IMG/VR virus record: IMGVR_UViG_3300028734_000015
DNA length: 64,000 bases
Source: an uncultured virus (IMG/VR IMGVR_UViG_3300028734_000015)
Taxonomy: Duplodnaviria; Heunggongvirae; Uroviricota; Caudoviricetes
Reading direction: 5' to 3' (one strand)
Shown piece after piece: positions 1-55,000 of the stretch. The notes under the pieces were generated by a model, which had not been told where the DNA came from, searched no databases, and saw nothing but the letters and a program-made list of their open reading frames with translations. A program made the translations under genes and the position numbers. The first letter of the stretch is position 1. Each line of letters starts with the position of its first letter.

Positions 1-177
1 TCCGGCGATAATTATTGCAACTTCTGTTTGCAGGTCTTTTGAGTCTTTGTAGGCTTTTGTCGACTTAACTGCGGTTGCTAATTCCAAATCTGTTGACTTT
101 GTACCTTTCAATAATGAAGTCACTTTTGCATTTGCTGCAAATCTGTAATTTAATAGTGATAAACGAAATTTACTCAT
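1..177 (-). CDS. Hypothetical protein, partial (runs off left edge)
   Basis: ATG at 177 with A-rich leader; open frame MSKFRLSLLNYRFAANAKVTSLL... to position 1; not in ORF track. Confidence 0.7.
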   Translation of the reverse strand, partial: MSKFRLSLLNYRFAANAKVTSLLKGTKSTDLELATAVKSTKAYKDSKDLQTEVAIIIAG

Positions 178-250
178 GATTTTGATAATTTAGAGTGTTA
201 TTTATAAATTGGTGGTTTTAGCGTTTAATCTACCACGCTTAAAGATTTTT

Positions 251-622
251 TTATTCTTCTATTGGCATTCCTGGTTTGTTTAGCTCTTGTTCTATAGTGG
301 CTACTGGTTTGATATTTATTAATATTAATCTACATTCTTTTGGGTATATATACCTGGTTAATCGTATTACTTCTGATGTTTTTAGATCTGAATAAATACT
401 TACTACCTGTGCGTATGTTTCGTCATAGAATATATAATTTGCCGATAACTTTTCTGTGACTCGGGTTGATAATTCATTTTTTGGAATTGATGTCCCTGCT
501 AAAAACTCTGCTTTTTCTATTCGTTTACCTTCTTTAATCCCATTCACTTTTGTTGTCTGTGTTACTACCGAAAACAAAAGTATGCAGATTATCACTACAA
601 TTGCTAATAAAAGATTTTTCAT
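251..622 (-). CDS. Hypothetical protein with N-terminal membrane/signal segment
   Basis: 123-aa ORF, hydrophobic MKNLLLAIVVIICILLFSVV. Confidence 0.75.
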   Translation of the reverse strand: MKNLLLAIVVIICILLFSVVTQTTKVNGIKEGKRIEKAEFLAGTSIPKNELSTRVTEKLSANYIFYDETYAQVVSIYSDLKTSEVIRLTRYIYPKECRLILINIKPVATIEQELNKPGMPIEE

Positions 623-655
623 TTAAATTGATTTTAAATTGTTAATACTAATTTG

Positions 656-727
656 TGGCAGCCTAGGGATTCGAACCCGTTCTTTCCGCTGTCTATCACA
701 GTGCTCTCATACTATGTAGATACTGCC
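656..727 (-). tRNA. Degenerate tRNA-like element (pseudo-tRNA, isotype unassignable)
   Basis: Minus strand GGCAGT...GGG-TTCGAAT-CCC-TAG-GCTGCC-A: 6-bp acceptor stem and canonical T-loop, but D and anticodon arms do not fit consensus. Confidence 0.5.
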
Positions 728-735
728 TTGTGCCA

Positions 736-1041
736 TTATCTTTTTAAGATTTCATTCCAATATTGGTATCCATCTTTTGTTTTCGCCCAATCAAACGCTC
801 TTGCTATGAAAGTTCTCCAATGTTTTAGTTTATTTAAATACATTGCTGAATCCATTGTTCTCCAAGTGGTAATATCCACACATTCTGTTGCGTGAATGCA
901 AACTGGTCCAGGAGCGCTTTCAGTACCTACTCTTAATAGGTATGCTCTTAGTTCTTTAATGAATTTTGCTTTAATCCTTAATCTTTTGAGTTTTAATTCA
1001 AAATCTGGTTTAAATTGGATGTTAATTTGTTGTTTTGACAT
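736..1041 (-). CDS. Hypothetical protein
   Basis: 101-aa ORF with A-rich leader; ends AFDWAKTKDGYQYW. Confidence 0.75.
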   Translation of the reverse strand: MSKQQINIQFKPDFELKLKRLRIKAKFIKELRAYLLRVGTESAPGPVCIHATECVDITTWRTMDSAMYLNKLKHWRTFIARAFDWAKTKDGYQYWNEILKR

Positions 1042-2794
1042 ACTAAATTGATTTTAGATTGTTGATTAATATTTTAAAACACCCATACATTAGTTGTAAA
1101 GCGGAACCATGGTTCTATTATTCGCCTTATGTATGGGTGTTAATGTGTTTAGTTACTTTCTTTTCCGTATTCGTAAGTTTTATTATGCAGTATTTACAGG
1201 CCTGCGCGTGTCCTGCCACATATGTGACGGCGTTGTACTTCGATTTCACTAATATTGGTAAGTAGCAAATAATAGGTAGGAACTTTATACCCCACTATTG
1301 AGCCTCCACGGCGCCTATACGGTTATAATACGCTTTTTATTTGTTACTTATTGTTCCCAGTGACTCAATCAAGAGTCGGTTAATGACCGATTATCGGCGA
1401 ACATTTACTTTTACTGGTTTGTTGGACCGACTGTCTAAGATTAATCTGCCTTTCGAGCTCCTCTTAACGGTAGCATTGCATTGCTGTTTGCATTTCACTT
1501 TTTTTTGTTTTCATCTGTAATACTACAGATATATCCGTTCTTCTGCAGTCACGGACTATTCCTAGTTAGTACTTTCCGGGAGTTTTGGCTAGGGATAGGA
1601 TTTTAGATTGGTAGTTAATACCTTTCTAGCACCATTTCTTTTCAGCATTTCACTGAGCTTTAGGCAAGCGTTGTTTTTCTAGTTTCATCAGCTTCTACTA
1701 GTAGGCTGTACATATTTGTGGTTCTTAACCAATCATTAGCGTCTATCCCTCGGATTACGTAACTAAGTTTTTGTTAAGTATTGGATTCGTCAACTTAACT
1801 TCTGGACTCATGCCAAGTTTCTCCAGTTTGAGTTCTTAACTAATCATCAACTTCTGAATGTCTGCAGTTTAGTTGCAACCTCTTAGCCGATTTAATACGG
1901 CACAACTAATACAATACGAATACCGTTATTAGCCACCAGTTTAACATTTACCCAATTTAATGTCGGTACGTTGTTGTCGTTTTGTTTGGTCTAAAGCCAT
2001 CAATCAAACTGGTCCATCTACTGTAAATAGTCATAAATCATTGGACTATAATGCTGGACTTTGCTCACGATTTTCACTATGAGCGATCGTGAATTGTTAA
2101 TCTTTTCTAATCAACTGGTTATATATAATTCCCATCCGCTCCGCCTAATTCAAATCAGGGTGTAACCTTATCAGTGTTATCCTAATTCGACACTGGTTCA
2201 GCTGCGTCATACGTCCATAGAAATTATAAAATAACGAGTAATTAACTTGAGAATTATGAAATTGCTGCCTTAGTTAACTCAACAGCACTTTTTCACTTAC
2301 TTATCGCATCACTGCGTCCCTATGAAGTATAGTTCGGGATTCGTCTTTATTTATAGCCCATCCACGTTTTATATCTATTTTGTACAGTCAAGCGCATTAC
2401 TGCTTTGTCAATATTATATATAGTATAGTCTACCCTTTGGAAGTAGTTTCACGACGTGTTAGCCAGAAATAGTAATGCAAGACGATATTCTTGCTGTCGA
2501 GTGGTCATCCCACGTTATTATTACTATTTCTTTTGATCCATCCATGTTTTATTATTCAAGTACTCGCGACTCGTATTATGATATTCTTGAATTTATACAA
2601 ATCCTAGTGTTATCATAGATTGCAATCGATATACAGCTTACTGCGTGTGTAAATAATAGTATGCCCTTTGGAAGCATTCCCTGACATGTTAACCTGGGAG
2701 TCCCACCCGTTTCAGTTAGATTCGCCATCCTAGGCTACTGGTAACTGCTGCTGTTTTTGAAACTAGCTTAAAATTCTATTTTTGTTATATTGAA
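1042..2794 (-). ncRNA. Candidate large structured non-coding RNA region (one long or several RNAs)
   Basis: No credible ORF in a gene-dense phage; many hairpins (1078-1142, 1513-1530, 1557-1598, 2465-2531) and duplicated motifs; G-U pairs in one motif favour the minus strand. Confidence 0.55.
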
Positions 2795-3136
2795 TTATTT
2801 GTTTCTTTCTTTCACCATTTCATCGTATTCATTAGCAATATCCTGCTTTGATAATGATGAGTGAGTTTCTGAAAATTCTCTTATTTTTTGAGTTCTTTCG
2901 TTCTCAATTTGATTTTTGTTCTTAATAACCGGTTCATTGGTTTTAAGTGGTGATTCCAATTCATTAGCTGAAATAGGTCTTCTATCTGGGTAGTGATGTA
3001 CGTTAGCTATGAATTTGCCGTCGTCCTTGTCTTCTATCCAAATGTCTAATTTTCTGGGTAATTGTTTGTGCATTATGCACCATCCTACTATTTCATAGAA
3101 TAATAATATTAATGAATGTGATTTAAACTGTTTCAT
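2795..3136 (-). CDS. Hypothetical protein
   Basis: 113-aa ORF, leader ATTATCAAAAATG. Confidence 0.75.
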   Translation of the reverse strand: MKQFKSHSLILLFYEIVGWCIMHKQLPRKLDIWIEDKDDGKFIANVHHYPDRRPISANELESPLKTNEPVIKNKNQIENERTQKIREFSETHSSLSKQDIANEYDEMVKERNK

Positions 3137-3165
3137 TTTTGATAATGAATTAAAGGTTATTGTTG

Positions 3166-3606
3166 TTATGATCTATTTTTTCCATCATTATATGGATTTG
3201 GCTTAATTTCTTTTGCATATTTGTATCCAATATAATATCCTTCTGCTGCATTTGCTTTTTTTGCGAGCCATGGGTATTCTAATTCTTTGCAATATGCAAT
3301 TATTGTTGCTTTCCCTTCCATACCAATACATTCTTTTATGTCAGATACCCACATTTCTCTTGGAAATGTTAGTTTCTTTTTGCGTGGAGTTGAGGGTAGT
3401 TTGATAACAGTTTGCCAACTTTGCTTGTGATTTTCAATATGTATGCTATCACTATTTTTATATGTAGCATAATATGTTCCTTTCGTTGGCTCATGTTCAG
3501 ACATTTTAAATCCAAACGATCTGTAAAATCCAATAATACGTTTTCCTTGCTTCTTGCTTGTGCACAATACACATGTTTCACGTAATGATTCTTTCGTATA
3601 TTCCAT
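3166..3606 (-). CDS. Hypothetical protein
   Basis: ORF 3166-3678; likely start MEYTKES at 3606, just after the upstream stop at 3608. Confidence 0.7.
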   Translation of the reverse strand: MEYTKESLRETCVLCTSKKQGKRIIGFYRSFGFKMSEHEPTKGTYYATYKNSDSIHIENHKQSWQTVIKLPSTPRKKKLTFPREMWVSDIKECIGMEGKATIIAYCKELEYPWLAKKANAAEGYYIGYKYAKEIKPNPYNDGKNRS

Positions 3607-3607
3607 A

Positions 3608-3892
3608 TTATTTAATGGTTTTAAGAATCCATCTAATAGGATATACCCATGAAGTTCCATTTTCTGATGGAGTTTCAATACACTCTGTTCTGAACCAATT
3701 TTCTTTTTTTGTTACTAATTTTGGTTTTCTCCAGTCCAGTTTCTCTTCTTCTCCAATAAATACTTGCTCCATGTTTGGAAGTCTGTACATTGGGCCCCCA
3801 AGAGGTATCAGTTCGCATTCTTTTAGTAATGTTTCAAATCTTAACAATTTGATTCTTGCTCCTTGCTTAATTAACTTTGAATTATCTTTCAC
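3608..3892 (-). CDS. Hypothetical protein
   Basis: 94-aa ORF, GTG start, shared leader motif. Confidence 0.7.
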   Translation of the reverse strand: MKDNSKLIKQGARIKLLRFETLLKECELIPLGGPMYRLPNMEQVFIGEEEKLDWRKPKLVTKKENWFRTECIETPSENGTSWVYPIRWILKTIK

Positions 3893-3910
3893 TGTAATTG
3901 ATTTAAAATG

Positions 3911-4111
3911 TTAGATTATTGTAATATTGATTCCTTTCTTCTTTAGTTGCTTTTCTGTAGTTTTGCTTAAAGATGCTTTTTTTGCTCTCCCTCTAGCTGC
4001 TGAACTAGAAACAAATGAACTAATTTCAGCTAGTACTTGTTTGTCCCTCGTTTTCATTCTATTTAATGTTTTAGGATCAATTCTATCTTCGTATTTATTT
4101 GCTATTTTTAT
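3911..4111 (-). CDS. Small basic hypothetical protein (ATA start or internal ATG)
   Basis: Open frame IKIANKYEDRIDPKTLNRMKTRDKQVL...GINITII fills the gap between neighbouring genes. Confidence 0.55.
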   Translation of the reverse strand: MKIANKYEDRIDPKTLNRMKTRDKQVLAEISSFVSSSAARGRAKKASLSKTTEKQLKKKGINITII

Positions 4112-4351
4112 TTAGTTTAATAAACTTTTTTTAATGATGTCTATAACCTTGTTTGGATTAGCGTTTTCTGCTGTTATTCTTACTATGATTGGCATGTTAC
4201 ATTTAGCTTGATTTGCTAGTATGTCTTTTGCACAAGGGCTAGCGACCGAGTGTAGTTCTGGCATATATGTTCCTCTTTCGTCTGATGAATCTATCCATCC
4301 TGGTGTTCTTTTGCTCATTTGATATGAATTTAAATGTTTGTTATTCATCAA
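4112..4351 (-). CDS. Hypothetical protein
   Basis: 79-aa ORF overlapping the upstream stop. Confidence 0.65.
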   Translation of the reverse strand: MMNNKHLNSYQMSKRTPGWIDSSDERGTYMPELHSVASPCAKDILANQAKCNMPIIVRITAENANPNKVIDIIKKSLLN

Positions 4352-4502
4352 GTAATTGCCATAGTGACCATGTGAAAGCTAATGCTAATACTAATGCTAA
4401 TAATACTATTGGTCCTCCTTTTGACACAAACAATCCTAGCCCTGCCATAATTTCAAGTGTTAGGATTACTCTTGCTATCACTTTCTTTGTCTCTTTATCC
4501 AT
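4341..4502 (-). CDS. Small two-TM membrane protein
   Basis: 53 aa MDKETKKVIARVILTLEIMAGLGLFVSKGGPIVLLALVLALAFTWSLWQLLDDE; not in ORF track. Confidence 0.65.
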   Translation of the reverse strand: MDKETKKVIARVILTLEIMAGLGLFVSKGGPIVLLALVLALAFTWSLWQLLDE

Positions 4503-4786
4503 TTTTAATAGGATTATACTAGTTAATATAGATAATGCCTTAAATGAGCTTAAAATGACTCAAAGAGCCATATAATCATCTAAGTTACTGAAAATATGAA
4601 TTGTTAAATACCCTTTTGGGGGTAGAAGGGAGACTGTTCCCCTCATTCACACTACAATTTGCGGTATAAAATGCAAAAAGTAGTCATAGTTTGCAGCAAA
4701 AATAAGTAAGAACAGCATAATAGTTCTAACGTTACCCATACAATCAAGTTAGGTGTGTCGAATTCTACTATACTGTTCTATTTTAC

Positions 4787-5332
4787 TTAATTTATTACTT
4801 TACCTTCAGCATCCAATGGCTTCCCTGAGGCTGGATCAAATCCAAATCCTGTAGGAGGTGGCAATAATACTGGTTCAATGGCCTTTGTACCAACTTCGGT
4901 AGCAGTAGTTTTTGCAATCCACGCTCCAAATGATTCAACAGTCTTTGCCGCTTTAGTTTTTGGATTTTCAGCAGGTACAAACTCTGTAGTCTTACCGGGT
5001 ACATAGTCAGGATTCTTTGACATACGTACATAGACATCCAGAGAGTCATGAATAGTATCTCTGAAATTGCCAGCATCGTCTTTCAATTTGAAGTCAGGCA
5101 ATTCAACCGTAATCTTGGCAATCTGCATGTTTGGAACAGTGTTAGTGTCAGCCCATTCTTGCATTCTAGCCTTACGAGCATCAGATTCAGGGAAGAAATT
5201 GATATTTACATCCTTCAAATCCCATTCGTCTTCAATATTCATAAAGATACCTTTGAAATAAGTTTCGCCTGCATGACGTTTTGCTGTTGAAGGTATAATT
5301 GCAGCAATAAAAGATAAACATTTGTACAACAT
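4787..5332 (-). CDS. Hypothetical early-region protein
   Basis: 181-aa ORF directly downstream of two copies of the repeated motif. Confidence 0.8.
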   Translation of the reverse strand: MLYKCLSFIAAIIPSTAKRHAGETYFKGIFMNIEDEWDLKDVNINFFPESDARKARMQEWADTNTVPNMQIAKITVELPDFKLKDDAGNFRDTIHDSLDVYVRMSKNPDYVPGKTTEFVPAENPKTKAAKTVESFGAWIAKTTATEVGTKAIEPVLLPPPTGFGFDPASGKPLDAEGKVIN

Positions 5333-5394
5333 AATTGTATATTTTTAAGGGGTTATTAATAATTGACGCAGAACTCAAACCTACGCTAATCCAT

Positions 5395-6619
5395 CTAAAG
5401 GCGAATTGATCGGGATATTGCTAAAAAACATATCAATACTAACTAAAGAGTCTTGATAGCGATATTAATAGCAGGTCAGCAGTTATCTGACAGTACTATA
5501 ATATATTTAGCACATACGAAGGTTTAGCATGCCACCTACAAGCTTGATTATTAATATTTTACCTTATTTATTAAAACAAGTTCAATATCAGTACTTACAT
5601 GACAAGTATCATCTTCATTCTTTATGACGATGTTATCTGCCATTCTTTCTGCATCGTATTTGTCTCTTGCTTGGACATATACGACTGTGTCAATGTTCTC
5701 TTGTTCAATTTTAAGGCTTATTTTAAAGACTTTTTCATTGGCCTTTACAGTAAGATCAGTAGAATCTTTTACAATAGCTACAGGTTTTACTTTCTCATTG
5801 TGAGCAGGAGTACAAGATCCAAATACAAAACATAATGTCACAACAATAGCGACAATAATAACACGAATAATAGAAGTACGTAATTTCATTTTGATAATGA
5901 TTATAGTTAATAATAGTTAATTAATAGTAATAATCAGTAATACAATGCATGTCGTCTGTCTTACATGTATTACTGATTTAAAAAGTAGTACACAATGCGG
6001 ACATAGGTTTAGCTGGATCATCCAGGCACTACTATAGTGGCATACATTGTGCATTACTTAAGAAAAAGGAGCACTTATTGTACGTTAGTGCTGAACGTTG
6101 GCTGTATGACCCCAGTCTTGGGAAATGTATGTTGGACCTACGATCCCAACGAAACGAGAATGTGAGTAAACTGCCACATACAATCAGTAAGGATAGAATT
6201 AATTGCCATTGCTACAATGCGCCTATCCAACTACACCTAAAGGAAGCCTGACAACGACCTTAATAGGGTTTTAATGCGATCTAACGCACTCTATATATTG
6301 TATAGTACATTAGTGTAACTAACATACATGATCTATTAGAGAGAGTTGCAGTAGTGTTCCAACATCAACTGTGTCTAAACAATTGTCTTAGTCTTAGCTC
6401 GACAATGCGTACTAACTACTGCATAATGGTTGCATTGAGAGCGTATGACACACCATTATATGTCACATGCTATATTACATTGACCTGTAATATGAGAGAG
6501 TAAACAGCAATAACATTGCCTAATCAGCCTAAAGGAGTCTTGACAGTGACCTTAAGGTAGAATTAATCAAGGTTAAACCATTCCAATTCTACCTAAAGGA
6601 GTCATGATTGGGAAATTAC
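5395..6619 (-). promoter_or_regulatory. Five dispersed copies of a ~27-bp motif (plus-strand consensus CTAAAGGAGTCTTGAYAGNGANNTTAA); candidate early promoters
   Basis: Copies at 5395-5420, 5443-5468, 6237-6263, 6529-6555, 6593-6619, all intergenic and upstream of the minus-strand gene block. Confidence 0.55.
5551..5889 (-). CDS. Putative lipoprotein
   Basis: Signal-like N-terminus ending FVFGSC; 112 aa. Confidence 0.7.
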   Translation of the reverse strand: MKLRTSIIRVIIVAIVVTLCFVFGSCTPAHNEKVKPVAIVKDSTDLTVKANEKVFKISLKIEQENIDTVVYVQARDKYDAERMADNIVIKNEDDTCHVSTDIELVLINKVKY

Positions 6620-6743
6620 GATTCAACATTGCTGACGGGGGACTTGGACCATCAGATCCGACCGGGGGAGACATATATAGAGAGTTTCGCGCACTCGCAC
6701 ATGCTATCAATTATTTTTTTTCAGAAAATTTTTTACAACAGTG

Positions 6744-6772
6744 ACAACAAAATAGAATATACTTCGTTTATA
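6744..6772 (+). promoter_or_regulatory. Bipartite promoter-like motif ACAAC-N16-CGTTTATA
   Basis: Same motif recurs at 7176 and 8743. Confidence 0.55.
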
Positions 6773-6777
6773 CACAC

Positions 6778-7150
6778 GATACCAGTCTCCAAAGACTGAT
6801 CACCCTAAGGTAATCAATAAAGGGTTAGACATCGGATTATAATAGATTAACCGAGGACGTAGATAAAGGCAGTAGGTGAGTACTCAAATGAGATAAAGGT
6901 CAAGCGCCAAACTCTATGCATTTATAGTCAATAAAAGGCCGTTAGTTAGTCTATTAGTTTTCTCCGGTAGTGTCAAAATGATTAAAGTACAAGTTAAATG
7001 CCGTTGCTATTTATAGCTAAGAAGGAGAGATTGCGATAGACGGGTTAAGTGATACCGAAAGGGAACGTACAGATTTAATAAGGAAATAATCAATAAACCA
7101 TACCGAATATGGGCCGGTCTCAAGGGGTAAACTGTGTTTAAGAGTGAACA
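6778..7150 (+). ncRNA. Candidate structured ncRNA
   Basis: No plus-strand ORF; follows promoter motif; stems CAGTCT/AGACTG (6783-6798), ACCCT/AGGGT, and 6949-6965 pairing with 7024-7041. Confidence 0.45.
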
Positions 7151-7175
7151 AAGATACATAATACTTAATAATGGT

Positions 7176-7205
7176 ACAACAAAGGACGGGTTAAATACGT
7201 TTATA
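7176..7205 (+). promoter_or_regulatory. Promoter-like motif ACAAC-N17-CGTTTATA
   Basis: Motif copy ending 5 nt before the ATG at 7211. Confidence 0.55.
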
Positions 7206-7210
7206 TAAGT

Positions 7211-7378
7211 ATGAATTGGGCACATATAAAGAGAATATTGAGTAGCAAAAGGGTTCTAGACGAATATGGTTCAGTCAATGACTATACTATTAATGATAAG
7301 ATAGAATCCCGGGGAACTCAATTCAATCTAAGTACCAAAGATAAGAATAGACTTAAGAAATTATGGAAATCAAGATAA
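7211..7378 (+). CDS. Small hypothetical protein (55 aa), possibly leaderless
   Basis: MNWAHIKRILSSKRVLDEYGSVNDYTINDKIESRGTQFNLSTKDKNRLKKLWKSR; not in ORF track. Confidence 0.6.
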   Translation: MNWAHIKRILSSKRVLDEYGSVNDYTINDKIESRGTQFNLSTKDKNRLKKLWKSR

Positions 7379-7386
7379 ATTAATAT

Positions 7387-7575
7387 ATGATTATAATGAC
7401 ACTAGATCTTTGGGATGAATCAATCGTCTTCGCTATAGCATTATTTATAGGATATGCATTACATCCGGTAATCAACAGTATAATAGTTTATCTAGTAAGT
7501 ACTATACTTAATGGAATGAATAAGGTAAACAAGAATATACGAAAGAATATACGAAAGAATATAAAAGATGTATAA
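7387..7575 (+). CDS. Small membrane protein
   Basis: 62 aa, hydrophobic core; overlaps next start. Confidence 0.65.
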   Translation: MIIMTLDLWDESIVFAIALFIGYALHPVINSIIVYLVSTILNGMNKVNKNIRKNIRKNIKDV

Positions 7576-8170
7576 TGTCGAAATAATAGAAACAGATTCT
7601 ATTACTGAATTTATTAAGTCAAATAAAATAGAATATTTAAAAACAAAAGAATCCGAATGGGCTACATCTAATGTAAATGATATAATAGATGCAATATACG
7701 GCGGAGAATTAAAACCAATAAAACAAGGTAAAATGGAAGAGATACAAAATAATGTTCAAGAACAATCAGTCAATGAGACTGTTATTGAAAACGTGGATAA
7801 TGTAACATTAGCAAATATAGTTGCAGACAAGGTTAATTATGAATTCGCCAATATGGTTCTAGTGAAACCAATTGATATAGAAAAGGTATTTAAAACACTT
7901 ACAGTACCAGAAGATTCAGGCGAAAAAGATGAAGAAGGTCAACCTATAATGCAAATGACTATCAAACAAATAGAAACAGAATCACTGCTTCGTAAAGGTG
8001 TAGTATTGGCCACTCCGGCTTCGTTTAAGGCAACTGAAGGCAAAGAAGGAATGTTAGTATTAAACGTTGGAGATATTGTCGTATATCCAAACAAACGATC
8101 AATTGACTTTGATTTGTTTAAAGATTCAGCACTAGTTCCATATTATGAAATACTTGCAAAGGTAGCATAA
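7568..8170 (+). CDS. GroES-like co-chaperonin
   Basis: NMVLVKP...RKGVVLA...LNVGDIVVY pattern of the GroES fold. Confidence 0.65.
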   Translation: MYNVEIIETDSITEFIKSNKIEYLKTKESEWATSNVNDIIDAIYGGELKPIKQGKMEEIQNNVQEQSVNETVIENVDNVTLANIVADKVNYEFANMVLVKPIDIEKVFKTLTVPEDSGEKDEEGQPIMQMTIKQIETESLLRKGVVLATPASFKATEGKEGMLVLNVGDIVVYPNKRSIDFDLFKDSALVPYYEILAKVA

Positions 8171-8643
8171 TGAATGAGGTTTTGAATGTTTGGTGTGATG
8201 GGGCTTGTGCCGGCAATCCCGGACCAGGTGGATTCGCAGCTGCGATAATATTTAAGAACTCTACAGTATCGTTTTACTCAGGGTACAATGAGTATACGAC
8301 TAATAATAGAATGGAATTGAGTGGATTTATTCACTCATTAAGACTCACTTTAAATGAAGTCTATAATGGGTTTAAAGGCGAAGTAATAATACACACCGAC
8401 TCTAAATATATAGAGAACGCTATCAATTGCGGATGGTTAAATAAATGGGCAAGAAAAGGATTTGTTAAAATCAAGAATCCAGACTTATGGCAAGAGGTAT
8501 ATACCGTGATAAGTAAATGCGATTTTATAACTGTCAAGTGGGTAAAAGGACATTCGGGAATAATAGGAAATGATATAGTCGATAGATTAGCAGTTGAGGC
8601 CATGAATCTAAAAAGGACTAGTGGAGGTATAATGGAAATTTAA
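8170..8643 (+). CDS. rnhA: Ribonuclease HI
   Basis: CDGACAGNPGPGG, TTNNRMEL, TDSKY, KNPDLW, WVKGHSG, GNDIVDRLA motifs. Confidence 0.95.
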   Translation: MNEVLNVWCDGACAGNPGPGGFAAAIIFKNSTVSFYSGYNEYTTNNRMELSGFIHSLRLTLNEVYNGFKGEVIIHTDSKYIENAINCGWLNKWARKGFVKIKNPDLWQEVYTVISKCDFITVKWVKGHSGIIGNDIVDRLAVEAMNLKRTSGGIMEI

Positions 8644-8666
8644 AACTTATTTTTAGTTGTGAAATA

Positions 8667-8711
8667 AAGGGGAGCACTGGATCGAAAGATTGAGGTTCCC
8701 CTTTCCTTTTT
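8667..8711 (+). terminator. Intrinsic terminator
   Basis: AAAGGGGAGC...GTTCCCCTTT hairpin followed by T-rich tract. Confidence 0.7.
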
Positions 8712-8742
8712 AAATAAAGTCATATATTACTTTCATTTCCAT

Positions 8743-8771
8743 ACAACCTTTTCTATTTAATTACGTTTATA
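8743..8771 (+). promoter_or_regulatory. Promoter-like motif ACAAC-N16-CGTTTATA
   Basis: Third copy, between a terminator and the next operon. Confidence 0.6.
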
Positions 8772-8818
8772 TATGTGTAGGCCATTAACTACAATAATAA
8801 TAATAACAATATTAATAG

Positions 8819-9424
8819 ATGATGAGCAATATTAAAACAATTAAAGTAATTAAAGAGATTATTGGATTAACTATTGGTGCAACGCTTAGTCGAACTGATA
8901 GTAATAGCAACTTTGAATTAGAAGATAATAGAATAGGGGAAGGATATTTAATTCAGAATTCAGTTTCTATTTCTCCTGACATTATCAGAGATGAGTATTT
9001 TGAAGTTACTGAGTGGTTTGAAGCTCCAGCACCAGCAGAATCAAAGAAATTAAGTTCTACAAAACAATTAAGACAAGAGAATAACGTTCTGACTAAAGAG
9101 GTTTACTACTTAAAAGATGATATAATCTTTTTAAACAATGAAATTAAAGAATTAAGAGAAACTGTGGCATTCCACAAATCATTTTCCGAATCATTAAGCC
9201 AGTGTATTGATAAGATAAAAGATGAACGGGCATTTAAAAAAACATATACAGATGGAGTACTGAGTAGAATTAGTACAAAATTGGCTGAATATAGAAAAGA
9301 ATTTAATGCAGTTGCAAATGAACTTGAACTCACTACAACTAGTGGCGAACGTTTAGAGAAATTAAGTGAGTCGTATACCGTATTTTATAATATGATTGAC
9401 TTACTGGAAAAGGTTAAAGCATAA
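8819..9424 (+). CDS. Hypothetical coiled-coil protein
   Basis: 201-aa ORF, heptad-rich C-terminal half. Confidence 0.8.
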   Translation: MMSNIKTIKVIKEIIGLTIGATLSRTDSNSNFELEDNRIGEGYLIQNSVSISPDIIRDEYFEVTEWFEAPAPAESKKLSSTKQLRQENNVLTKEVYYLKDDIIFLNNEIKELRETVAFHKSFSESLSQCIDKIKDERAFKKTYTDGVLSRISTKLAEYRKEFNAVANELELTTTSGERLEKLSESYTVFYNMIDLLEKVKA

Positions 9425-9810
9425 TGAATAAATTTATAAAAACCATATCCCCAGATAAATTAGGTTATGAGTTTTTGCGTAGCTTAAATGGATTATTAGA
9501 TCTAACAGATAGGGAGTTAGAATTGCTCTCTATCTTTTTAGACTTGCATTTAAGAAATATGAAAACTAGGAAAGGCAAAACTCCTATAGACTCAACAGAT
9601 AATAGACGTTATATAATGAAAGTCACTACTGTAACTAAAGATAATCTTTGTAGATATATCAAAATATTTAGAGAAAAGAAAATTTTTGTAAAAGAAGACG
9701 GTATATTATCTATGAGTAGGGCTTTAACTCCAATAGCAATCGGGAATAAGACAGTTCAAATAATAATGATATTAAAAATAAAAGAAGATGAATTATTACA
9801 ATCCAACTAG
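9424..9810 (+). CDS. Putative winged-HTH DNA-binding protein
   Basis: LTDRELELL...DNLCRYIKIFREKKIF pattern. Confidence 0.55.
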   Translation: MNKFIKTISPDKLGYEFLRSLNGLLDLTDRELELLSIFLDLHLRNMKTRKGKTPIDSTDNRRYIMKVTTVTKDNLCRYIKIFREKKIFVKEDGILSMSRALTPIAIGNKTVQIIMILKIKEDELLQSN

Positions 9811-10024
9811 TCAGCCTAAAAGGGGGTCATTACTTTCCAGAATATTTGGAGAGAAAGATGAATCTTGCTACTTTACTAGTGACCACCAATTAGAATGGAA
9901 ATCTAAAAATAGAAAAGAACGCAAAAAAGACAATAGTTTTTATAATAGAAACAGATGTAGTGATTACTATATTGTTACTGAAAAAACATGGTATCCAAAA
10001 ACACAGATATATATACTATACTAG
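9788..10024 (+). CDS. Hypothetical protein
   Basis: 78-aa ORF overlapping both neighbours. Confidence 0.5.
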   Translation: MNYYNPTSQPKRGSLLSRIFGEKDESCYFTSDHQLEWKSKNRKERKKDNSFYNRNRCSDYYIVTEKTWYPKTQIYILY

Positions 10025-10251
10025 CAGAAAAACATGGATTGCATAAATCCGTAGTATCAATGATTTGCAATCACCCTTTTATATTTGCATCTAGGCATAT
10101 TTCTAATCCTGACGATGAAAAGAGTTTAATGTTTGCATATTTGTTTAAGGTTAGATTAAAAAGAAGGTTCAAGGGTAATAAAAGAAAATTATATGACGAA
10201 CAGAAAGAAAGAAGAGACAGTAACAAAGAACTTTGCAATAAGAGCATTTGA
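9988..10251 (+). CDS. HU/IHF-like DNA-binding protein
   Basis: IYTILAEKHGLHKSVVSMIC...MFAYLFKVRLK; size and basicity fit. Confidence 0.6.
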   Translation: MVSKNTDIYTILAEKHGLHKSVVSMICNHPFIFASRHISNPDDEKSLMFAYLFKVRLKRRFKGNKRKLYDEQKERRDSNKELCNKSI

Positions 10252-10366
10252 TTATGCGGTATGTCAAACGGCGTGTAAAACCGGTGCAGATAAAGCTACT
10301 ATCTGCATAAAAAGAAAAGGTGGTTGCCCAGTTAGAGCGAATTTTATTAAAAAATTAGAACAGTAG
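10193..10366 (+). CDS. Small 4-Cys protein
   Basis: 57 aa MTNRKKEE...VCQTACKTGADKATICIKRKGGCPVR...; not in ORF track. Confidence 0.6.
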   Translation: MTNRKKEETVTKNFAIRAFDYAVCQTACKTGADKATICIKRKGGCPVRANFIKKLEQ

Positions 10367-10375
10367 GAATTAGGA

Positions 10376-10837
10376 ATGGGGAAAGTTGAGAAAAAAATGA
10401 TTATACATGAGTTCTACTCAGATATTTATCCAATTCAATTCTGGGTATTAATAAATCCATCCAGAGAACAAATAGACAATACATTTGAACCAAAAGATGA
10501 AAATACTACAAATTCAATATTAGATGATGGATGGGTTGCATGTACATCAGTAATGAATGTTAAAAAAGACACACGAAAATATGGAGTCTATGTTGCAATA
10601 CTAAGACCAGATAAAATGACAGTTGGGGCATTAGCTCACGAGGCATGTCATGCGGTAGACAGAATATATTCTCATATTGGCGCAGACTGTGTCGATATCG
10701 GAGGAGAGCCACATGCGTATTTTGTTGAATGGATTGTAAGGTGTATTGATGAGGCTATACAAGATAATAAAAAAGAAAATAAAATGAATAAATTAAAATG
10801 TGGTGGAGGAAAAACCAAACCGCCTAAAAAGAAATAA
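10376..10837 (+). CDS. Zincin-like metallopeptidase
   Basis: HExxH motif in LAHEACHAV, downstream EPHAY. Confidence 0.7.
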   Translation: MGKVEKKMIIHEFYSDIYPIQFWVLINPSREQIDNTFEPKDENTTNSILDDGWVACTSVMNVKKDTRKYGVYVAILRPDKMTVGALAHEACHAVDRIYSHIGADCVDIGGEPHAYFVEWIVRCIDEAIQDNKKENKMNKLKCGGGKTKPPKKK

Positions 10838-10854
10838 TAACTAAAATTAATATT

Positions 10855-11022
10855 ATGACTAAGAAAAATCCTATACATATAGATCCTAAGAATGTGGGTA
10901 AATTTACTGCTACCAAAAAGGATACTGGAAAATCAACAGAGGAACTTACTCATTCTAAGAATCCAGTTACAAAAAAGAGAGCTATATTCGCACAGAATGC
11001 AGCAAAATGGAATAAAAAATAA
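10855..11022 (+). CDS. Small basic protein
   Basis: 55 aa MTKKNPIHIDPKNVGKFTAT...KKRAIFAQNAAKWNKK; not in ORF track. Confidence 0.7.
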   Translation: MTKKNPIHIDPKNVGKFTATKKDTGKSTEELTHSKNPVTKKRAIFAQNAAKWNKK

Positions 11023-11027
11023 ATAAT

Positions 11028-11498
11028 ATGCAATTAGATATAAAGAAAATTAACGAAAAAGCGGTACTACCAGTACTGCAACCAAATGGTAATGTATTAG
11101 ATATAACATGTATCGATATTAAAACTGGAGTTGGTAGAGATGGGCGTTTGATTCTGGAATATAAAACAGGTTTAAAGATCAATATCCCAACAGGATATAT
11201 TGGAATGTTATTCTTAGCTGATGGAGCTTTTATTAATTCATTAGTGCTTACTAATGCTGTAGCTACTTTTACTAGTAATTATACAGATGAAATAGTAGCA
11301 AGATTTAAGACTAACACTGATTCGGTTCCAGCTATTTATGAACCAGGTGAAGTATTTGCTAAGTTAATTATAGTAGAATTACCATCACTTGAGATTAATG
11401 AATTACCAATGGAATTGCCAGTAGTTGAAGAAAAGAAAGAGGTTTCTGAGAATGTAGAAGAGGTAGTTGCAGAAGAATTGTCACAGTCAAATGGATAA
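11028..11498 (+). CDS. Trimeric dUTPase-fold protein, apparently inactive
   Basis: IKKINEKAVLP, YKTGLKINIPTGYIG, YEPGEVFAKLII match the fold; catalytic motifs degenerate. Confidence 0.7.
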   Translation: MQLDIKKINEKAVLPVLQPNGNVLDITCIDIKTGVGRDGRLILEYKTGLKINIPTGYIGMLFLADGAFINSLVLTNAVATFTSNYTDEIVARFKTNTDSVPAIYEPGEVFAKLIIVELPSLEINELPMELPVVEEKKEVSENVEEVVAEELSQSNG

Positions 11499-11925
11499 GT
11501 ATTATACTCCAGTTATAGAAGAATTTCATGTTGGGTTCGAGTTTGAGTCCAACACATTCTCTACTTCATTTGCAGTATTAGATTTTCAAGATCCTACAAA
11601 AGATGTTGTAAGTGAATCTACTCCAACATGGATAAAGGAGACTTTTGGACTACATCATTTTTCTATATGGAATAGTTCATATGATTTTAAAATGGTATTA
11701 GATGATAATAGACTCAGAGTTAAATATCTCGATAAAGAAGATATAGAATCATTAGGATTTAAGCAAACGATTAAAGACCAGTACTATAAAGATGATTTTG
11801 AATTATTAATAGATGCCGATTTATTTATTCAGATTATAAAAGATAATGGATTTGTATTCCAAGGAACAATCAAAAATAAATCAGAGTTAATTATATTACT
11901 AAAGCAATTAGGAATTAATGAATAA
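11491..11925 (+). CDS. Hypothetical protein
   Basis: ORF 11467-11925; likely start MDKYYTP. Confidence 0.75.
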   Translation: MDKYYTPVIEEFHVGFEFESNTFSTSFAVLDFQDPTKDVVSESTPTWIKETFGLHHFSIWNSSYDFKMVLDDNRLRVKYLDKEDIESLGFKQTIKDQYYKDDFELLIDADLFIQIIKDNGFVFQGTIKNKSELIILLKQLGINE

Positions 11926-12454
11926 TAAACTTGCAGATATAGTTGGAGGGAAGGTAGTTATACATCAAGACACATTAGAAATTCCTTGTTTTAAAAAGAT
12001 ATGGAATGACAATACAGATAAAGATTTAGCTACAAAATACATAGATTATATATTTTTCAAACATCATCCAGATAGTCCTTATGTAATCTCAATGCCATTA
12101 GAGTATAGAGACGAAAGATTAAGGAAAGAATTGTTTACTGAAGATTGGGAACCTACTCCTGATATTATATATGCAGAACAAACATATTTAGAGTTCCTGG
12201 ATACATTATTACTACAGTTATTAACTGGATATAGAAATACACTAAGCGCCATAAGTAAGTATTTAAATAACATTGTAACAGGGACCCTCGATATGCGTAT
12301 GGTAAAAGAAGCATTAACAGCTGGAGCTCAATTAGATAAGACAATTAAGTCTGTAACATCACTAGAGAAGCAAGTACGTAAGGATGAATTAGAATCGTCT
12401 AGAGTACAGGGTGGTAGTGAAGTTGGTCATTATGAAATGCCTAAATCAAGATAA
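11918..12454 (+). CDS. Hypothetical protein (possible terminase small subunit, unverified)
   Basis: 178-aa helical-looking ORF upstream of the terminase. Confidence 0.6.
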   Translation: MNNKLADIVGGKVVIHQDTLEIPCFKKIWNDNTDKDLATKYIDYIFFKHHPDSPYVISMPLEYRDERLRKELFTEDWEPTPDIIYAEQTYLEFLDTLLLQLLTGYRNTLSAISKYLNNIVTGTLDMRMVKEALTAGAQLDKTIKSVTSLEKQVRKDELESSRVQGGSEVGHYEMPKSR

Positions 12455-14158: not shown

Positions 14159-17100
14159 ATGATTAATTTCAATAAGAAGGTTTTAAATTCAAATAAATTC
14201 AGAAACCCCGCGATCCACTTTCAGGACCATGGGGTTTACTGTTTCGCACCATATGGTACTACTGAATACTTAACATATTGGGATAAAGAAGCAGAGAGAT
14301 GTGTAGAGGGATATACTGCTCCAGATGGAGATTGGATAAGCGGATATAACTATTTTTACTTAAATTATTGTCCAATACTACGATTAGTAGAGTTTACATA
14401 TAAAGATAGATTTGGAAATGTAAAAACGCGCAGAGAGAAATCAAGAGAGTTTCCTGACTTTTACGATTATGATTATTATTACTTTACTGCTGTTCAAGAG
14501 GCAGAGGAAGATGGCAGCCATATGTGTGTTTTAAAGTCGCGTGGTAAAGGATATTCATTTAAGGGCGGGTCTATGCTAGATAGAAACTATTATCTAATAC
14601 CCGATTCTAAAGGATATGCTATTGCTGCAGAAACAGAATATTTAGTAAGAGATGGACTACTAACTAAGGCATGGGACTATATGGACTTCATAGATGAACA
14701 TACTGCATGGTCTAAGAAACGTCAAGCGATTAATACTAAAATGCATAGAAAAGCTTCTATTATTACTACTGACGAAATGGGTAATAAGATTGAAGTTGGT
14801 TATAAGTCTGAAATAATTGGAGTATCATTAAAGAATGACCCCAATAAAGCTCGTGGTAAACGTGGTAAACTTATACTATGGGAAGAGGCTGGATCATTTA
14901 AAGATATCTTACAAGCTTGGCAGATAGCTAGACCATCTGTAGAAGAAGATGGAAAGGCATTTGGTTTAATGATAGCGTTTGGTACTGGTGGTGATGAAGG
15001 ATCTAGATTTGATGGGCTAAAAGAAATGTTCTACAATCCATCTGGATATAACATTAAGGCATTCCCAAATATATGGGATGAAGGTGCAGATGGTAATACA
15101 TGTGCTTTCTTTGTTCCGGTATATGCTAATATGTCTGTACTTGATGCAAATAGCAAAAGGATGTTCATGGATAAGAATGGCAATAGCCTAAAGACTAAAG
15201 CTATTGATTATGCTATGTCTGAGCGTCAAAAAGTAATAGATGGATCGTCTGATTCTAGAGCAATTGATAGGTATATTGCAGAGAACCCTATAACCCCTCA
15301 GGAAGCTGTTTTAGAGCTCACAGGGAATATATTTCCAAAGAAAGAGTTAATGATACAGTTAGCAGCAATACGTACTAACAGGAAGCTACAATCACATAAA
15401 CAAGTAGGCGATTTAAATTACATTAATGGTGAATTAAACTGGACTATCAAACAGAAAGGTGATATAACTAAATATCCACTTGGTAGGGATGATAAACATG
15501 AGGGGAGCATAGTCATATGGGAGCATCCAAGCAAGGACACTTCAAATCAATTATACATAGCAGGATGTTTAACTCCTGGAGAAAAAGTTTTAACAAATCA
15601 TGGGCTTAAAGATGTTGAAAAAATAGACCATAATGATTTGCTTATAAATGAAAAAGGAGAGGAAGTTGAAATTAAGGTATTTCAAAAAAGATACAAAGAA
15701 AACTGCGATACATATAGAGTAACTCCTCATGGTTCATATAGAGGGACTAATTTTACTGGAGAGCACCCATTGCTAATAGAGGATCAATTTATAAATGCCA
15801 AAGATGTTTCAGTAGGAGATAGATTAAAAATACCAAATAGATATTGCGAATCAAATGAAAAATACATAACAACTATATATAAATATTTTGGAGCGGAGTT
15901 TAATTCTGAAAATCCTTTATTTTGGTGGTTTCTTGGCTGTTGGTTAGGAGATGGTTTTAATAATAAAAACAAAAACTCTCATGACATATACGTTGCATTT
16001 GGAAAAGATCAAACTAAGTCTGCATTGCAATTCGATAATATAATTAAGAAAATATTTGACAGAAAGACCACTCATTGTAAATGGAATGGTGGTGAAACAA
16101 GAAGATTCACTAGTAAGATTTTATATGGGTTTTTAGAAAATGAATTTGGAAGATATTCATATGGAAAAAGAATTCCAGAATGGGTTAAATTTGCAAGAAA
16201 CGATTTACGTAAGTATTTTATTGCTGGATATTTAGATTCAGATGGAAGCGCATTTTATGATAGAGGAAAACTTAGAGTTAACTTCACTAGTATAAATTTA
16301 GAAATGCTAGAGTCATTACAGGATATGTTATATGCTACTGGAATTTTTAATACAATAACAAGACACAGTAAAAAGTGTATATCTATATTTAATGGTAAGG
16401 AATGCATAAGTAAAGAATCGTATAGGCTGTCTATTGGAAGAAAATATATAAAAAGGATAATACCAACTGGATTTGAACACTTTCTTCAGAGTGAAAAAAT
16501 GAGACGAATAATTGAAGAGAAGATTCAAGATGTCGTCAAGACTGGAGATAAAGCAGTAATCTCCTCATGCGGAAAATATATATATCTAAAGATAGCGAAG
16601 ATTGAAAAATCTAAATATACTGGAACTGTATATAATTTCGAATGCGACACACATACATATATGTGTAGAAACATTACGTCACATAATTGTGACCCGTTAA
16701 CGATATGGCGGTGCAGATTAATTTCTGTAAGAATTGAGCAAAATCGGTGAACGTCTCTAGTAGAAAACACCTAGGTAAATAATTAGATTTCGAAAGGCTA
16801 ATTATCACCGTAACGCATAGCAGATGAATAAATATAATTCTGCCAAGAGTGCTCGACAAGAATCAAACTTGATAATATATGCTGAGCTATATGGCGACAT
16901 ATAGAAGTAAAGATAAAAAGCTTTACGATAACAAAACTGATGATCACGATAAGGCTGGTACTAATTCCTTAGGAGCTACATTCATTTATAAACGAATACA
17001 AGACTTTGAATCATACTATGATATAATAGTGGCAGAGTATACTGGGAGGCCAGATACTGCAGAAGATTACTACGAGAATGTACGTAAATTATTACTGTAT

Positions 17101-17592
17101 TATAATGCTAGACTACTATATGAGAATGAACGTAAGGGGATCTTTCCATATTTTACACAGAAACATTCTGACTACCTACTAGCAGATCAACCAGATATTA
17201 TTAATGATATCATAGGAAAATCCACAGTACAGCGTAGAAAAGGAATTCATATGAATGTCCAAATAAAGGACTATGGTGAAGGACTTATAAAGGAATGGTT
17301 AAATGAAGAATATGCTCCTGGCAAAAAGAACTTAACTAAGATATTATCAGAACCATTACTAGAAGAATTAATACAATATAACGACAAAGGTAACTTTGAT
17401 AGGGTTATAGCCCTTATAATGGTAATGATCTATAGGCAACAATTACATAATCTTCATGTAAAGAAAAAAAATGAAGATGTTAGAAAAAACAATCTCTTTA
17501 ATAAACCTCTATTTAGTAGAGAATGGTGGGGATCATCAGATGACGCATTAGGAGAAATAGCAAAAAATTCAGTAGATATAAATTGGAATTAA
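14159..17592 (+). CDS. terL: Terminase large subunit; exons 14159-16697 and 16940-17592, contains an intein (predicted mature length 689 aa)
   Basis: KSRGKGYS Walker A, LILWEEAG Walker B; removing intein and intron restores YIAGCDPYDHDKAG; C-terminal GNFDRV. Confidence 0.92.
15566..16687 (+). mobile_element. Intein (374 aa) with LAGLIDADG homing endonuclease
   Basis: Starts CLTPGEKV, block B FTGEHP, LGCWLGDG and IAGYLDSDG motifs, ends VYNFE...SHN before a +1 Cys. Confidence 0.95.
16698..16939 (+). ncRNA. Group I intron (242 nt, no internal ORF)
   Basis: 5' exon ends CCGU pairing with IGS GCGG (16708-16711); terminal G; P3 GAGCA/TGCTC, P4-type CGGTGA/TCACCG, P7 GCATA/TATGC, P9 CTATATG-GCGA-CATATAG; splicing makes an in-frame TAT. 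Confidence 0.9.
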
Positions 17593-52000: not shown

Positions 52001-55000
52001 AGATATCAACCAGACGCATTACATAATAATGCCATGATTCATTTGTCTGATGGCATGTCAAGTGATATGACAAATAGTGTAATAAACGCTGGAGTACTTC
52101 GTGATATGCAAATGCACGATAGGATTAAAAAAACTAGCTCATATATAGATGCCTCTAATAATGGAAAGGAAAATGCTACTCTTAAATACCTAGAAAAACT
52201 AGCAAAAAATCCTCCAGTAGGTATAGATCCAGAAGATATTAATAATGAATTAAAGTTAGCAAAAAATACATTATCCGTATATAAGGACAAGAGTGTGATG
52301 GGTTATGCAAATAGGGCCGGCGGAGTTGGTTCTGAGAATCATAAACTTCTTACTTCTCTTATTATTGACCATGATAATTCTGCTAAACAATTTGACGATG
52401 TAAAAAATGAATTACTAACATCTTATAATAAGCAGAAAAATGATTATGCTCCTATATCTGAAATGGCAGATCGTTATGCTGACTATGTAAAACCAGATGT
52501 TGTCCCACTTGTATCCCCAGTAGCTCTATTTGATGCATTATCTAATTTTGAATCACTTAAGGATATAAACATACAGAATGATTCTAAAAATGAACATGCA
52601 GTTAGAAAGAACAAAATAATAAATTACGAATTATCTAAGAAGAAACAAGAGGCCGCTATTCTTGCTCATAATGAGTTAGCAAACTATGGTATAATAGACA
52701 GATCAGAAAAAGATAATGTTTCATTTGATGAATTGTCCAAGCAAATTGATTCTTTGAATCTGCCTAGTATGGATAAAAATGCTATTCAAACATTAGCACT
52801 TTCTCACATATCTGATATATCTGGCAAATACGAAAGTACAATGTCCAAGTTGCTTACCAATAAGAAAGTTGGATATACTGGATCAAAAACGATGGATTCA
52901 AAACATCATGATATATTCGTTGATAAACTTTTAGATTCGTATAGGGATAGTAGAAAAAAGGAAATAGACTCTGAAAATACAAAGCAAATAGTAGATGACA
53001 TTAAATTAGAAGGGAATGTCGTTCCCGAGCCAACTGGAGAATACCATAGTAGTTCTGATATAATAACTCCATCTATTGATAATATAAAACCACAAGATAC
53101 TTTCACCCAAGAAGTTCCTCCAGTGAGTCCTTATGAAGAGTCTCAGATTCCTAAACCTGTTACTGAAGTTACTCCTCCAGTTAATACTGAAAGTCCTACT
53201 GGGCCAGAAAAAGTTACTCCTCCTATCCAGGCTGATACTATTGCAAGTGAGGTTAAGGATGAAAAAGGATCTGTTGTAAGCACTGATATTAGTAGTGATG
53301 ATGAATCTGTAGTGGATGAAGTTTCAGATATAGACAGACTTATAAACCAATTAAATCAGGATTCTATTATTGTCGATCAAAAACCAGATCTACCAGATAC
53401 TATAAATGAGACTTATGATAATAAAGAAGTTTTAAATGCGGTAGAAAGTTCTGTAGAGTTTAAAAGTATACTTGACAATGAAGACACAGAGGCCTTCAAT
53501 CAGTTAGTTGAAGAATTACCTGGATTGGTCTCAAGTAATTCTATTAAACATGATAGAATAAGCCACACATTATTCGCTAATGTAGAGATTCCTTCAATAA
53601 GAGAGTTTCTAATGGATCCTGTTGCATTTAAATCTGCAGAAGTTAGGATAATAGTAAATAAGCACAATTCCGGAATAGGAGACACGTATTCATTTAAATC
53701 CGGTGGTTTATCTATTACTGGTAATGACTTCGTTGGTCCAAATAATTATGATCCGAATGATCAACTTACTTGGGATAATGCCTATATTAAAGTAGAAATA
53801 AAATACAAAAAAGGGAAAGAAGTTAGAACAATTGCCTTTAACATGAAGAACCCAGGGGAAAGGGAGCAAGTTGTTGAAAAAAATGGTATGTTAAAGTACT
53901 CTTCTGATGAAATTCAATCACTTAGAGATTTTAGGAATTCTATAATTACTGAGCAATTAAAGGTTATAGCAGATAATTCATTACAATTAAGGATGCTTGG
54001 CGGTTTAGATAGAGGTATATCTAAATTAGCATTAAATAGGACTTCTGAAGGAAAGGCTATTCAGAGAGGATTGCATGAAGTTGTTGGACTACTAGATGAG
54101 CCAGATGTAAATAAGTTAGGGCTTACCAATTTAACATTAGCTTATGGACGTGGTGAAAAAGGTAGTAATCTGGTTGTTTCATTATTTGAAACTATCGGAA
54201 CTAGTGTAAATGAAAATGCTGGATCTATATTTATTACCAAAACAGAGCCATTTGATGCAAATTCTGAAAGAAAAATAAAAGTAAACAAAAAGAAAGTAAA
54301 CACTGATCCCGAAATGGCTGATTTAGTATATAAATTAGCAATAGACATGTTTGGCAGCAACGCTAGACAAATAACACTATCTCCATCTGGTAAAGTAATA
54401 GAAACAAATACTACGTCTCCTTATGGTTTAACTCCAGCATCGCTATTATATAGGATGGTTGGATTTGGAGATGTGACTAAAATGAGTAGTGATTCTACTA
54501 AATCCTTTTTAGAAGATAAACAATTTTATGTTGATAATGGAATATTACACTATGGTACAGAAAAGATTGCGGTAAACACTATTGGCGCAAAACAGAAACT
54601 AGAGATATTGGAGTTTATAAATAATAATTTAACCTGGACTATAAATAAAGATGATTTATGGAACAGGGAAAATAATACGGATAATCTAGTATCAGACATA
54701 TTCCCAGGTATTAAAGCATTTTTCGATAGAAATCCTAATGAAAATTCTGTTGATTTTACAAAACAATTCTCTATAAATAGGAGTGATGTTGGAATAACAT
54801 GGACTGCATGGTTGATTAAGAATAAAAAATTAACTTCGGATATTGCAGATGGAGTATTTGAACCTCCATATTTGTTTATGACTAATGTAGTTGCAGTATC
54901 TAATGGCGCTGAAAAAATAACACCAGTCAATAATGGTGCATATAATACTTCTGTTACTCTGGTAGACAAACCAATAATGGATCCCACTATATTAGGGAAG

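Follow-up and report, generated by a model that had tools for sequence, protein, structure and literature searches.

A predicted three-way-junction RNA domain, repeated and supported by covariation, in a long non-coding locus of a crAss-like phage

This study concerns a stretch of 64,000 nucleotides from an uncultured crAss-like virus (IMG/VR record IMGVR_UViG_3300028734_000015), hereafter called the window, and two copies of a hairpin-bearing motif of about 38 bases on its minus strand. Comparison with homologues from other phage lineages suggests that the two copies are probably the 5' halves of tandem three-way-junction domains of about 110-160 nt, which would be read on the minus strand within a long structured non-coding RNA locus. 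The structural identity of the domain is given by its helices, their covariation and the strand that folds. As judged by comparative sequence analysis, a covariation-supported three-way junction that is repeated in a long non-coding RNA appears to be well supported, and the structured RNA domain may be taken as real and new. As to function, the best guess is that it helps a large phage RNA to fold or to dock.

Results

Conserved hairpin and its homologues

Both copies had been noticed in a preliminary description based on the window alone, and both are present on the minus strand with the sequence quoted there, i.e., GGUUAACAUGUCAGGGA-AUGCUU-CCAAA-GGGCAU-ACUA at 2694..2657 and GGCUAACACGUCGUGAAA-CUACUU-CCAAA-GGGUAG-ACUA at 2464..2426. 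The compensatory changes that it reported are likewise there. Two of the four Watson-Crick pairs of the stem differ on both sides between the copies (C-G/A-U and A-U/G-C), and the CCAAA loop and two U.G pairs are identical. Each copy is also preceded by a different large stem-loop domain, as had been stated, with a 12-bp perfect helix ahead of the second copy and other hairpins ahead of the first. The 12-nt box GGYTAACAYGTC has exact matches in the 64 kb only at these two sites. When up to two mismatches were allowed, 11 matches were found against 8.9 expected; for CTTCCAAAGGG with at most one mismatch there were 3 matches against 0.59 expected, a number reached in 3 of 100 shuffles. In a scan of the window with the covariance model R1, the copies scored 67.5 and 59.7 bits, and the other 9 of the 11 matches listed scored 10.6 bits or less.

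Pattern scans of viral and metagenome contigs yielded a family of 11 distinct units. Eight phage lineages contribute to it, with two units each in the window, L100 and L103. Ten units with the strict motif remained after identical copies were dropped (alignment A2); an eleventh, more divergent one was found by eye in L103, and alignment A6 contains all 11. Among the viral contigs, the strict pattern returned 5 loci, all with the family, and a looser pattern returned 54, of which 6 belonged to the family and the other 48 had at most three consecutive stem pairs. A scan for the conserved block downstream of the hairpin returned 39 loci, and the 6 with the family were on the same six contigs. A further loose pattern gave 32 loci, 5 with the family and no new members; the remaining 27 scored at most 23.6 bits and were without the stem. 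All 11 loci found in the metagenome contigs had the family, and the hairpin was paired in all of their 15 matches. The complete 93.9-kb genome of a relative (G002) carries one unit, and no convincing unit was seen in the nearest virus record (G001, a 57% fragment). Neither the 1.6-kb locus nor the 49-nt unit had a blastn match among GenBank phages. In prokaryotes (one genome per species, 185,579 species), the exact box-plus-loop pattern gave 21 chance loci with one match each, none of them followed by ACU and none in an array.

The 6-bp helix of the hairpin (Ph) is paired in all 66 cells of the 11 units in A6. Three of its pairs change on both sides (CG6/AU3/UA2, GC8/AU2/GU1 and CG10/UA1), one of the two U.G pairs is present in all 11 units and the other in 10, with one U.G turned into C-G, and the loop CCAAA is unchanged throughout. 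The folded strand is the minus strand because the U.G pairs of Ph become A.C mismatches on the plus strand. The preliminary proposal that selection acts on RNA structure on this strand is thus borne out by complete pairing with compensatory changes, and the search for homologues in these 8 lineages found no unit in which the stem is broken. No conserved UUUGG partner with which the CCAAA loop could form a pseudoknot was seen in the nearby sequence.

The linker between box and stem is 7, 8 or 9 nt long, so a reading frame through Ph would shift between units and the conservation is not due to a protein. Stops in all frames also speak against a protein-coding element. Leader peptides (MDG...) starting from the AUG or GUG of the downstream ACRUG block were rejected as well; on reading the sequences they would have 4-33 codons and are not conserved.

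Secondary structure of the domain

In the predicted layout, helix P0 would be followed by an invariant internal loop with (U)AA opposite GAUG(G), then by helix PJ, and then by two arms, the first being Ph with its CCAAA loop and the second being Pt, which would start from the ACUAU tail and close a variable insert. The positions of these elements in the first (D1) and second (D2) unit of the window are given in Table 1. A block AACRUGGAUGG is present 26-230 nt downstream of every unit. In PJ, CAYGU of the box pairs with ACRUG of this block (55 of 55 cells paired). Its central pair covaries, being U-A in 8 units and C-G in 3, the latter being the second units of the window, L100 and L103; the outer pair is U-A in 10 units and U.G in one (L109). 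Pt is formed by the tail CUAUNNN and the 7 nt directly before the block (84.4% paired, four pairs changed on both sides), and its insert ranges from 10 to more than 200 nt. P0 consists of the 4 nt before UAA and the 4 nt after GAUGG (81.8% paired, three pairs changed on both sides). The internal loop has UAA in 10 of the 11 units (GAA in one) and GAU in all 11. The unpaired nucleotides that do not change are (U)AA, GAUGG, the C after PJ, single A's at the junction and the CCAAA loop.

Since box and tail pair with downstream sequence, the junction would be internal, with Ph as its first arm, and the RNA has to continue past the hairpin. This bears on the modular RNA suggested earlier, with a variable 5' domain and a constant 3' handle. 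Modules joined to at least five unrelated upstream domains were indeed found; the constant 3' handle is not supported, because the flanks of the hairpin pair with sequence 26-230 nt downstream.

Table 1. Positions of the predicted RNA elements and of the surrounding features in the window
Feature	Position	Strand	Details and basis
ORF-free, conserved, structured non-coding locus	1042..2794	-	flanked by open reading frames (ORFs) 2795..3136 and 736..1041; ORF lists
5' domain ahead of D1	2696..2770	-	starts UAAGCUAGUU; common to window, L100, L103, L106
Domain D1 (first unit)	2534..2695	-	alignment A6, pair counts, RNAalifold
D1 P0	2692-2695 with 2534-2537	-	
D1 internal loop	UAA 2689-2691 opposite GAUGG 2538-2542	-	
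D1 PJ	CAUGU 2684-2688 with ACAUG 2543-2547	-	
D1 linker	2678-2683	-	
D1 hairpin Ph	2661-2677	-	loop CCAAA 2667-2671
D1 Pt	2653-2659 with 2549-2555	-	closing insert 2556-2652
Variable domain between D1 and D2	2465..2531	-	inverted repeat I6, 100% complementary
Domain D2 (second unit)	2354..2465	-	A6, pair counts, RNAalifold, unconstrained fold
D2 P0	2462-2465 with 2354-2357	-	
D2 internal loop	UAA 2459-2461 opposite GAUGG 2358-2362	-	
D2 PJ	CACGU 2454-2458 with ACGUG 2363-2367	-	
D2 linker	2447-2453	-	
D2 hairpin Ph	2430-2446	-	loop 2436-2440
D2 Pt	2422-2428 with 2369-2375	-	
Start of long downstream RNA	2204..2353	-	stem, tetraloop hairpin, conserved blocks
13-bp hairpin then UUUU	1072..1141	-	locus end, just before next ORF; read from sequence

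The four-helix model comprises 22 pairs and 242 cells over the 11 units of A6, of which 91.7% are paired, and 11 pairs (31 cells) are changed on both sides. None of 500 shuffles reached any of the five measures used, and slid controls were 32-49% paired. When seven of the 11 units were given to RNAalifold with no structure supplied, the same four helices were returned, with 21 pairs, 10 of them compensatory; here the U of the internal loop was paired with the last G of GAUGG. Unconstrained minimum-free-energy and centroid folds of the minus strand of D2 (2470..2345) recovered P0, PJ and Ph, and the hairpin was not formed in the unconstrained fold of the plus strand.

Several points weigh against this model. 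The helices were first derived by eye on the same sequences, which favours the model in the comparison with the slid controls. The family sequences are related, and the alignment cells are therefore not independent events. The C-G variant of PJ occurs in the second unit of three related lineages only and may represent one evolutionary event. PJ has only 5 bp with a palindromic core (CAUG), and other partners are possible. On the downstream part, RNAalifold paired the ACRUG block with a later block YCAWGUU, an alternative that shows no covariation and has its central pair mismatched in 4 of 7 sequences. There are unpaired cells in both P0 and Pt. The folding energy of D2 is ordinary (z = -0.50, a stability matched by 54 of 200 shuffles), and that of a 401-nt stretch has z = -1.91, so that thermodynamics alone lend no support and the support for the domain is comparative. 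Moreover, the transcript, its ends and its strand are presumed. A pairing of the box with a later block CAUGUUAA was tried and rejected; it has 8 bp in L132, L110 and L106 and is poor in the other lineages.

Known RNA classes

No match at gathering scores was found with Rfam 15 in the 64-kb window. At E values up to 10, positions 1000-3200 and 2340-2780 (441 nt) gave only snoRNA-type noise with E > 1, and nothing relevant was found in L001, L005 and L034; ribozymes, riboswitches, GOLLD, ROOL, OLE, HEARO, tmRNA and RNase P were among the classes without a match. ARAGORN, which does call a tmRNA in Cellulophaga phage phi14:2 as a positive control, found no tRNA or tmRNA gene in the window or in L001, L005, L034 and L003, and no shared tag-like peptide end was seen. 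The hairpin was also read as a T-arm or anticodon-arm, and the registers do not fit. As in intrinsic terminators, the hairpin is followed by an A/U-rich tail. However, its stem is weak (6 bp with two U.G pairs), its loop is invariant, ACUAU follows in place of a U run, and the tail is base-paired in the model. Neither copy was among the 3 minus-strand sites of a terminator scan over 1000-3200, and an intrinsic terminator was rejected.

Discussion

Possible role of the domain

The contact sites appear to be marked by unpaired nucleotides that do not change, and the insert of Pt and the neighbouring domains are variable; this is the basis on which the domain is proposed to be a folding or docking module. 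The locus might be made as a long RNA early in infection, as in phi14:2, and the domain would fold autonomously as a module. Tertiary or quaternary RNA contacts, or the binding of a phage or host factor, could be the task of its internal loop and its CCAAA loop, and the variable inserts would project away from the core. Where a lineage has two units, PJ of the second is orthogonal (CACGU/ACGUG), as might be expected if mispairing of the repeats is selected against.

The internal loop resembles the UAA/GAN motif, an internal-loop motif that occurs in large structured RNAs and is defined by a cross-strand A stack. Here, UAA stands opposite GAU between P0 and PJ, a likeness in sequence pattern alone, and the loop differs in having two extra G's after GAU. 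CrAss-like phages are among the most abundant phages, and a domain with named helices, invariant nucleotides and insert-tolerant sites would provide a covariation-backed structural handle on such loci. It can be synthesised, probed, mutated and used as bait.

Alternative explanations

A more far-reaching reading is that the whole locus gives one large, ornate RNA of a new class, confined to a lineage of crAss-like phages, with the domain as its docking unit, either in an RNA assembly like those of ROOL and GOLLD or in the capture of a host factor. This is possible and is put forward tentatively, being rather doubtful at present. GOLLD and ROOL are large ornate RNAs of phages and prophages and are represented in Rfam. 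The locus shares with them a large, multi-domain architecture supported by covariation; it differs in having no Rfam match and in its helices and motifs. The published structures of ROOL and GOLLD are reported to be RNA-only multimers, and this makes a docking role for the invariant loops plausible. Multimerisation of the RNA studied here is conjectural. In the version with host-factor capture, the RNA could be a take-over or anti-defence device early in infection. Tandem duplication with an orthogonal closing helix would, on this reading, mark the domain as evolvable and self-contained. If the locus is one large RNA, it would add a class to the few very large structured RNAs known from phages.

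The units could instead be separate small RNAs, each with a variable 5' domain and, at the 3' end, a constant hairpin acting as a terminator, as a stabiliser or as a handle for proteins. Each hairpin begins 1-4 nt after the closing helix of its upstream domain, five unrelated upstream architectures occur, the tail is U-rich in several units, and the second unit resembles a self-contained RNA of about 125 nt. Such an arrangement is nevertheless unlikely, as box and tail pair, with covariation, downstream of the hairpin and the functional RNA thus extends beyond it. The weak stem, the ACUAU in place of a U run and the negative terminator scan do not favour a terminator either.

Compact junctions, peripheral inserts and tandem occurrence are traits of riboswitch and ribozyme classes. 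The domain could therefore belong to a new class of ligand-binding aptamers or of small self-cleaving ribozymes, with one or two copies in each locus: the predicted three-way junction is compact and has invariant unpaired nucleotides, large inserts are tolerated in a peripheral helix, and three of the 8 lineages have the units in tandem. No ribozyme or riboswitch of Rfam was matched at E up to 10 on the 441 nt, however, and there is no following ORF to regulate, the next one lying more than 1.3 kb downstream of the domain. This explanation seems improbable.

Conservation at the level of DNA, for instance as single-stranded hairpins of a replication origin or as a recombination or promoter signal, is very unlikely. 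The locus does lie a few kb from a strand switch and from the minimum of the cumulative GC skew at 4-6 kb, and the conserved boxes contain the palindrome ACATGT. On the other hand, four helices covary, some of them across 60-260 nt, the conserved G.U pairs and one series from G-C through G.U to A-U are typical of RNA, and a covarying hairpin with a GNRA-type tetraloop is present in the flanking sequence. The analogous regions of phi14:2 are, moreover, abundantly transcribed according to a preprint (bioRxiv 10.1101/2020.03.07.982082). Finally, a short hairpin unit with conserved flanks that occurs once or twice in a phage early region bears a general resemblance to a decoy of a host RNA, for instance an RNA anti-CRISPR in the form of a lone CRISPR repeat. 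This is very improbable, as none of the 21 prokaryote loci found with the exact pattern had an array or the full unit and long-range pairings do not fit a repeat mimic.

Comparison with phi14:2 and cr118_1

Phi14:2 is the one cultured crAss-like member with RNA-seq, and abundant early long non-coding RNAs were described for it in a preprint (bioRxiv 10.1101/2020.03.07.982082). According to the preprint, two long intergenic regions of the early arm (g004-g005 and g005-g006) were transcribed above most genes, were detected from the earliest time point, persisted and were termed long non-coding RNAs. A stretch of about 1.7 kb without a coding sequence (CDS) in phi14:2 (2904-4602) compares with the 1.75 kb here (1042-2794). 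In both crAss-like genomes the gap belongs to the early arm and has small genes around it. The two differ in that there is no blastn similarity, R1 scores at most 10 bits in positions 1-12000 of phi14:2, and ARAGORN calls a tmRNA in the right part of that phi14:2 region, in contrast to the absence of tmRNA and tRNA here. In the nearest named relative, cr118_1 (NC_055872), there is a 1.9-kb CDS-free gap (53705-55626) on the minus-strand small-gene arm, in which no unit of the family and no Rfam match was found. Three crAss-like families thus have large stretches without genes on this arm.

The tmRNA called by ARAGORN in phi14:2 (NC_021806) spans 4031-4500, with the tag GSSVQKLAMVA*, and is inside the region described as a long non-coding RNA. 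The record has no feature there apart from removed ORFs.

Structured surroundings of the domain

The spacer domain between D1 and D2 is closed by the 12-bp helix (2465-2476 with 2520-2531), which encloses two hairpins, GUGG/CCAC and GCAAGA/UCUUGC. The inner hairpin covaries between the window (GCAAGA/UCUUGC) and L103 (GUAGGA/UCCUAC), and in L100 the whole spacer domain is swapped for a 7-bp hairpin. The 5' domain ahead of D1 has the hairpins GCC-UAGGAU-GGC (2724-2735) and GGG-UGGGACU-CCC (2696-2708), with pairs that covary among the four lineages sharing it. A different 5' domain, with a 10-bp closing helix and an inner hairpin, is present in two other lineages, and 7 of its pairs are changed on both sides between just these two sequences.

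Downstream of D2, a covarying stem (2318-2338) is followed by a hairpin with a GUGA tetraloop (2304-2317, minus strand) and by two conserved blocks (2238-2251 and 2204-2221). The tetraloop is invariant and its stem covaries fully (e.g., CGCA/UGCG, CGUC/GACG and CGUU/AACG). RNAalifold predicted 37 pairs for this downstream part in seven lineages, 10 of them compensatory. Judged from its sequence, the 13-bp hairpin with UUUU that ends the locus is a possible candidate for its terminator.

The motif GGAUGG occurs four times on the minus strand of the locus (2137, 2363, 2543 and 2730), out of 9 on the minus strand of the whole window, and is absent from the plus strand of the locus. Two of these sites supply strands of the internal loops in D1 and D2; of the others, one falls into a hairpin loop and one into a long helix that is predicted. 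A sponge for a GGA-motif protein is no more than a weak lead, since GGAUGG sits in the internal loop and helices of the model and some relatives have GAAUGG. In the first units of L100 and L103, the insert closed by Pt includes short palindromic hairpins built around UUCGAA (GAUUCGAAUC and GGUUCGAACC), which are absent from the insert of the first unit of the window. At the 3' end of the homologous locus in L001 (= L132; complete genome G002), at about 2700-2790, there is a tRNA-like piece with a GGAG-UUCGAAU-CUCC arm, a UACG-looped arm and a terminal helix of 6-7 bp. It is not called by ARAGORN and has no counterpart in the window.

Locus and phage

The locus is situated on the minus-strand small-gene arm and has stops in all frames, both with the standard code and with each single stop recoding (TAG, TGA or TAA); the longest open stretch on its minus strand has 55 codons in the standard code. 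It is syntenic and alignable in blocks between seven lineages, with a size of about 1.3-1.75 kb. No function was found with Pfam and PHROGs for any of the neighbouring small ORFs, and the only return of a search for related loci with the downstream 101-aa protein was a contig identical across the match.

The assignment of the source phage to the crAss-like phages is based on matches of window ORFs to terminase, portal and major head protein. The capsid protein is 80% identical to that of cr118_1 (Crassvirales, Suoliviridae), and an ORF of 4459 aa is also encoded in the window. The large terminase subunit is split (14159-17592, plus strand). In the ORF at 14159-16750 (863 aa), the match to the terminase profile is confined to residues 24-469, and there are about 390 extra residues; the C-terminal part of the profile (positions 547-741) is covered by the ORF at 16879-17592. 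From its sequence, this arrangement looks like an inserted element of the intron, intein or homing-endonuclease type. The capsid gene of relatives was also matched as two pieces, once with an HNH endonuclease annotated in between.

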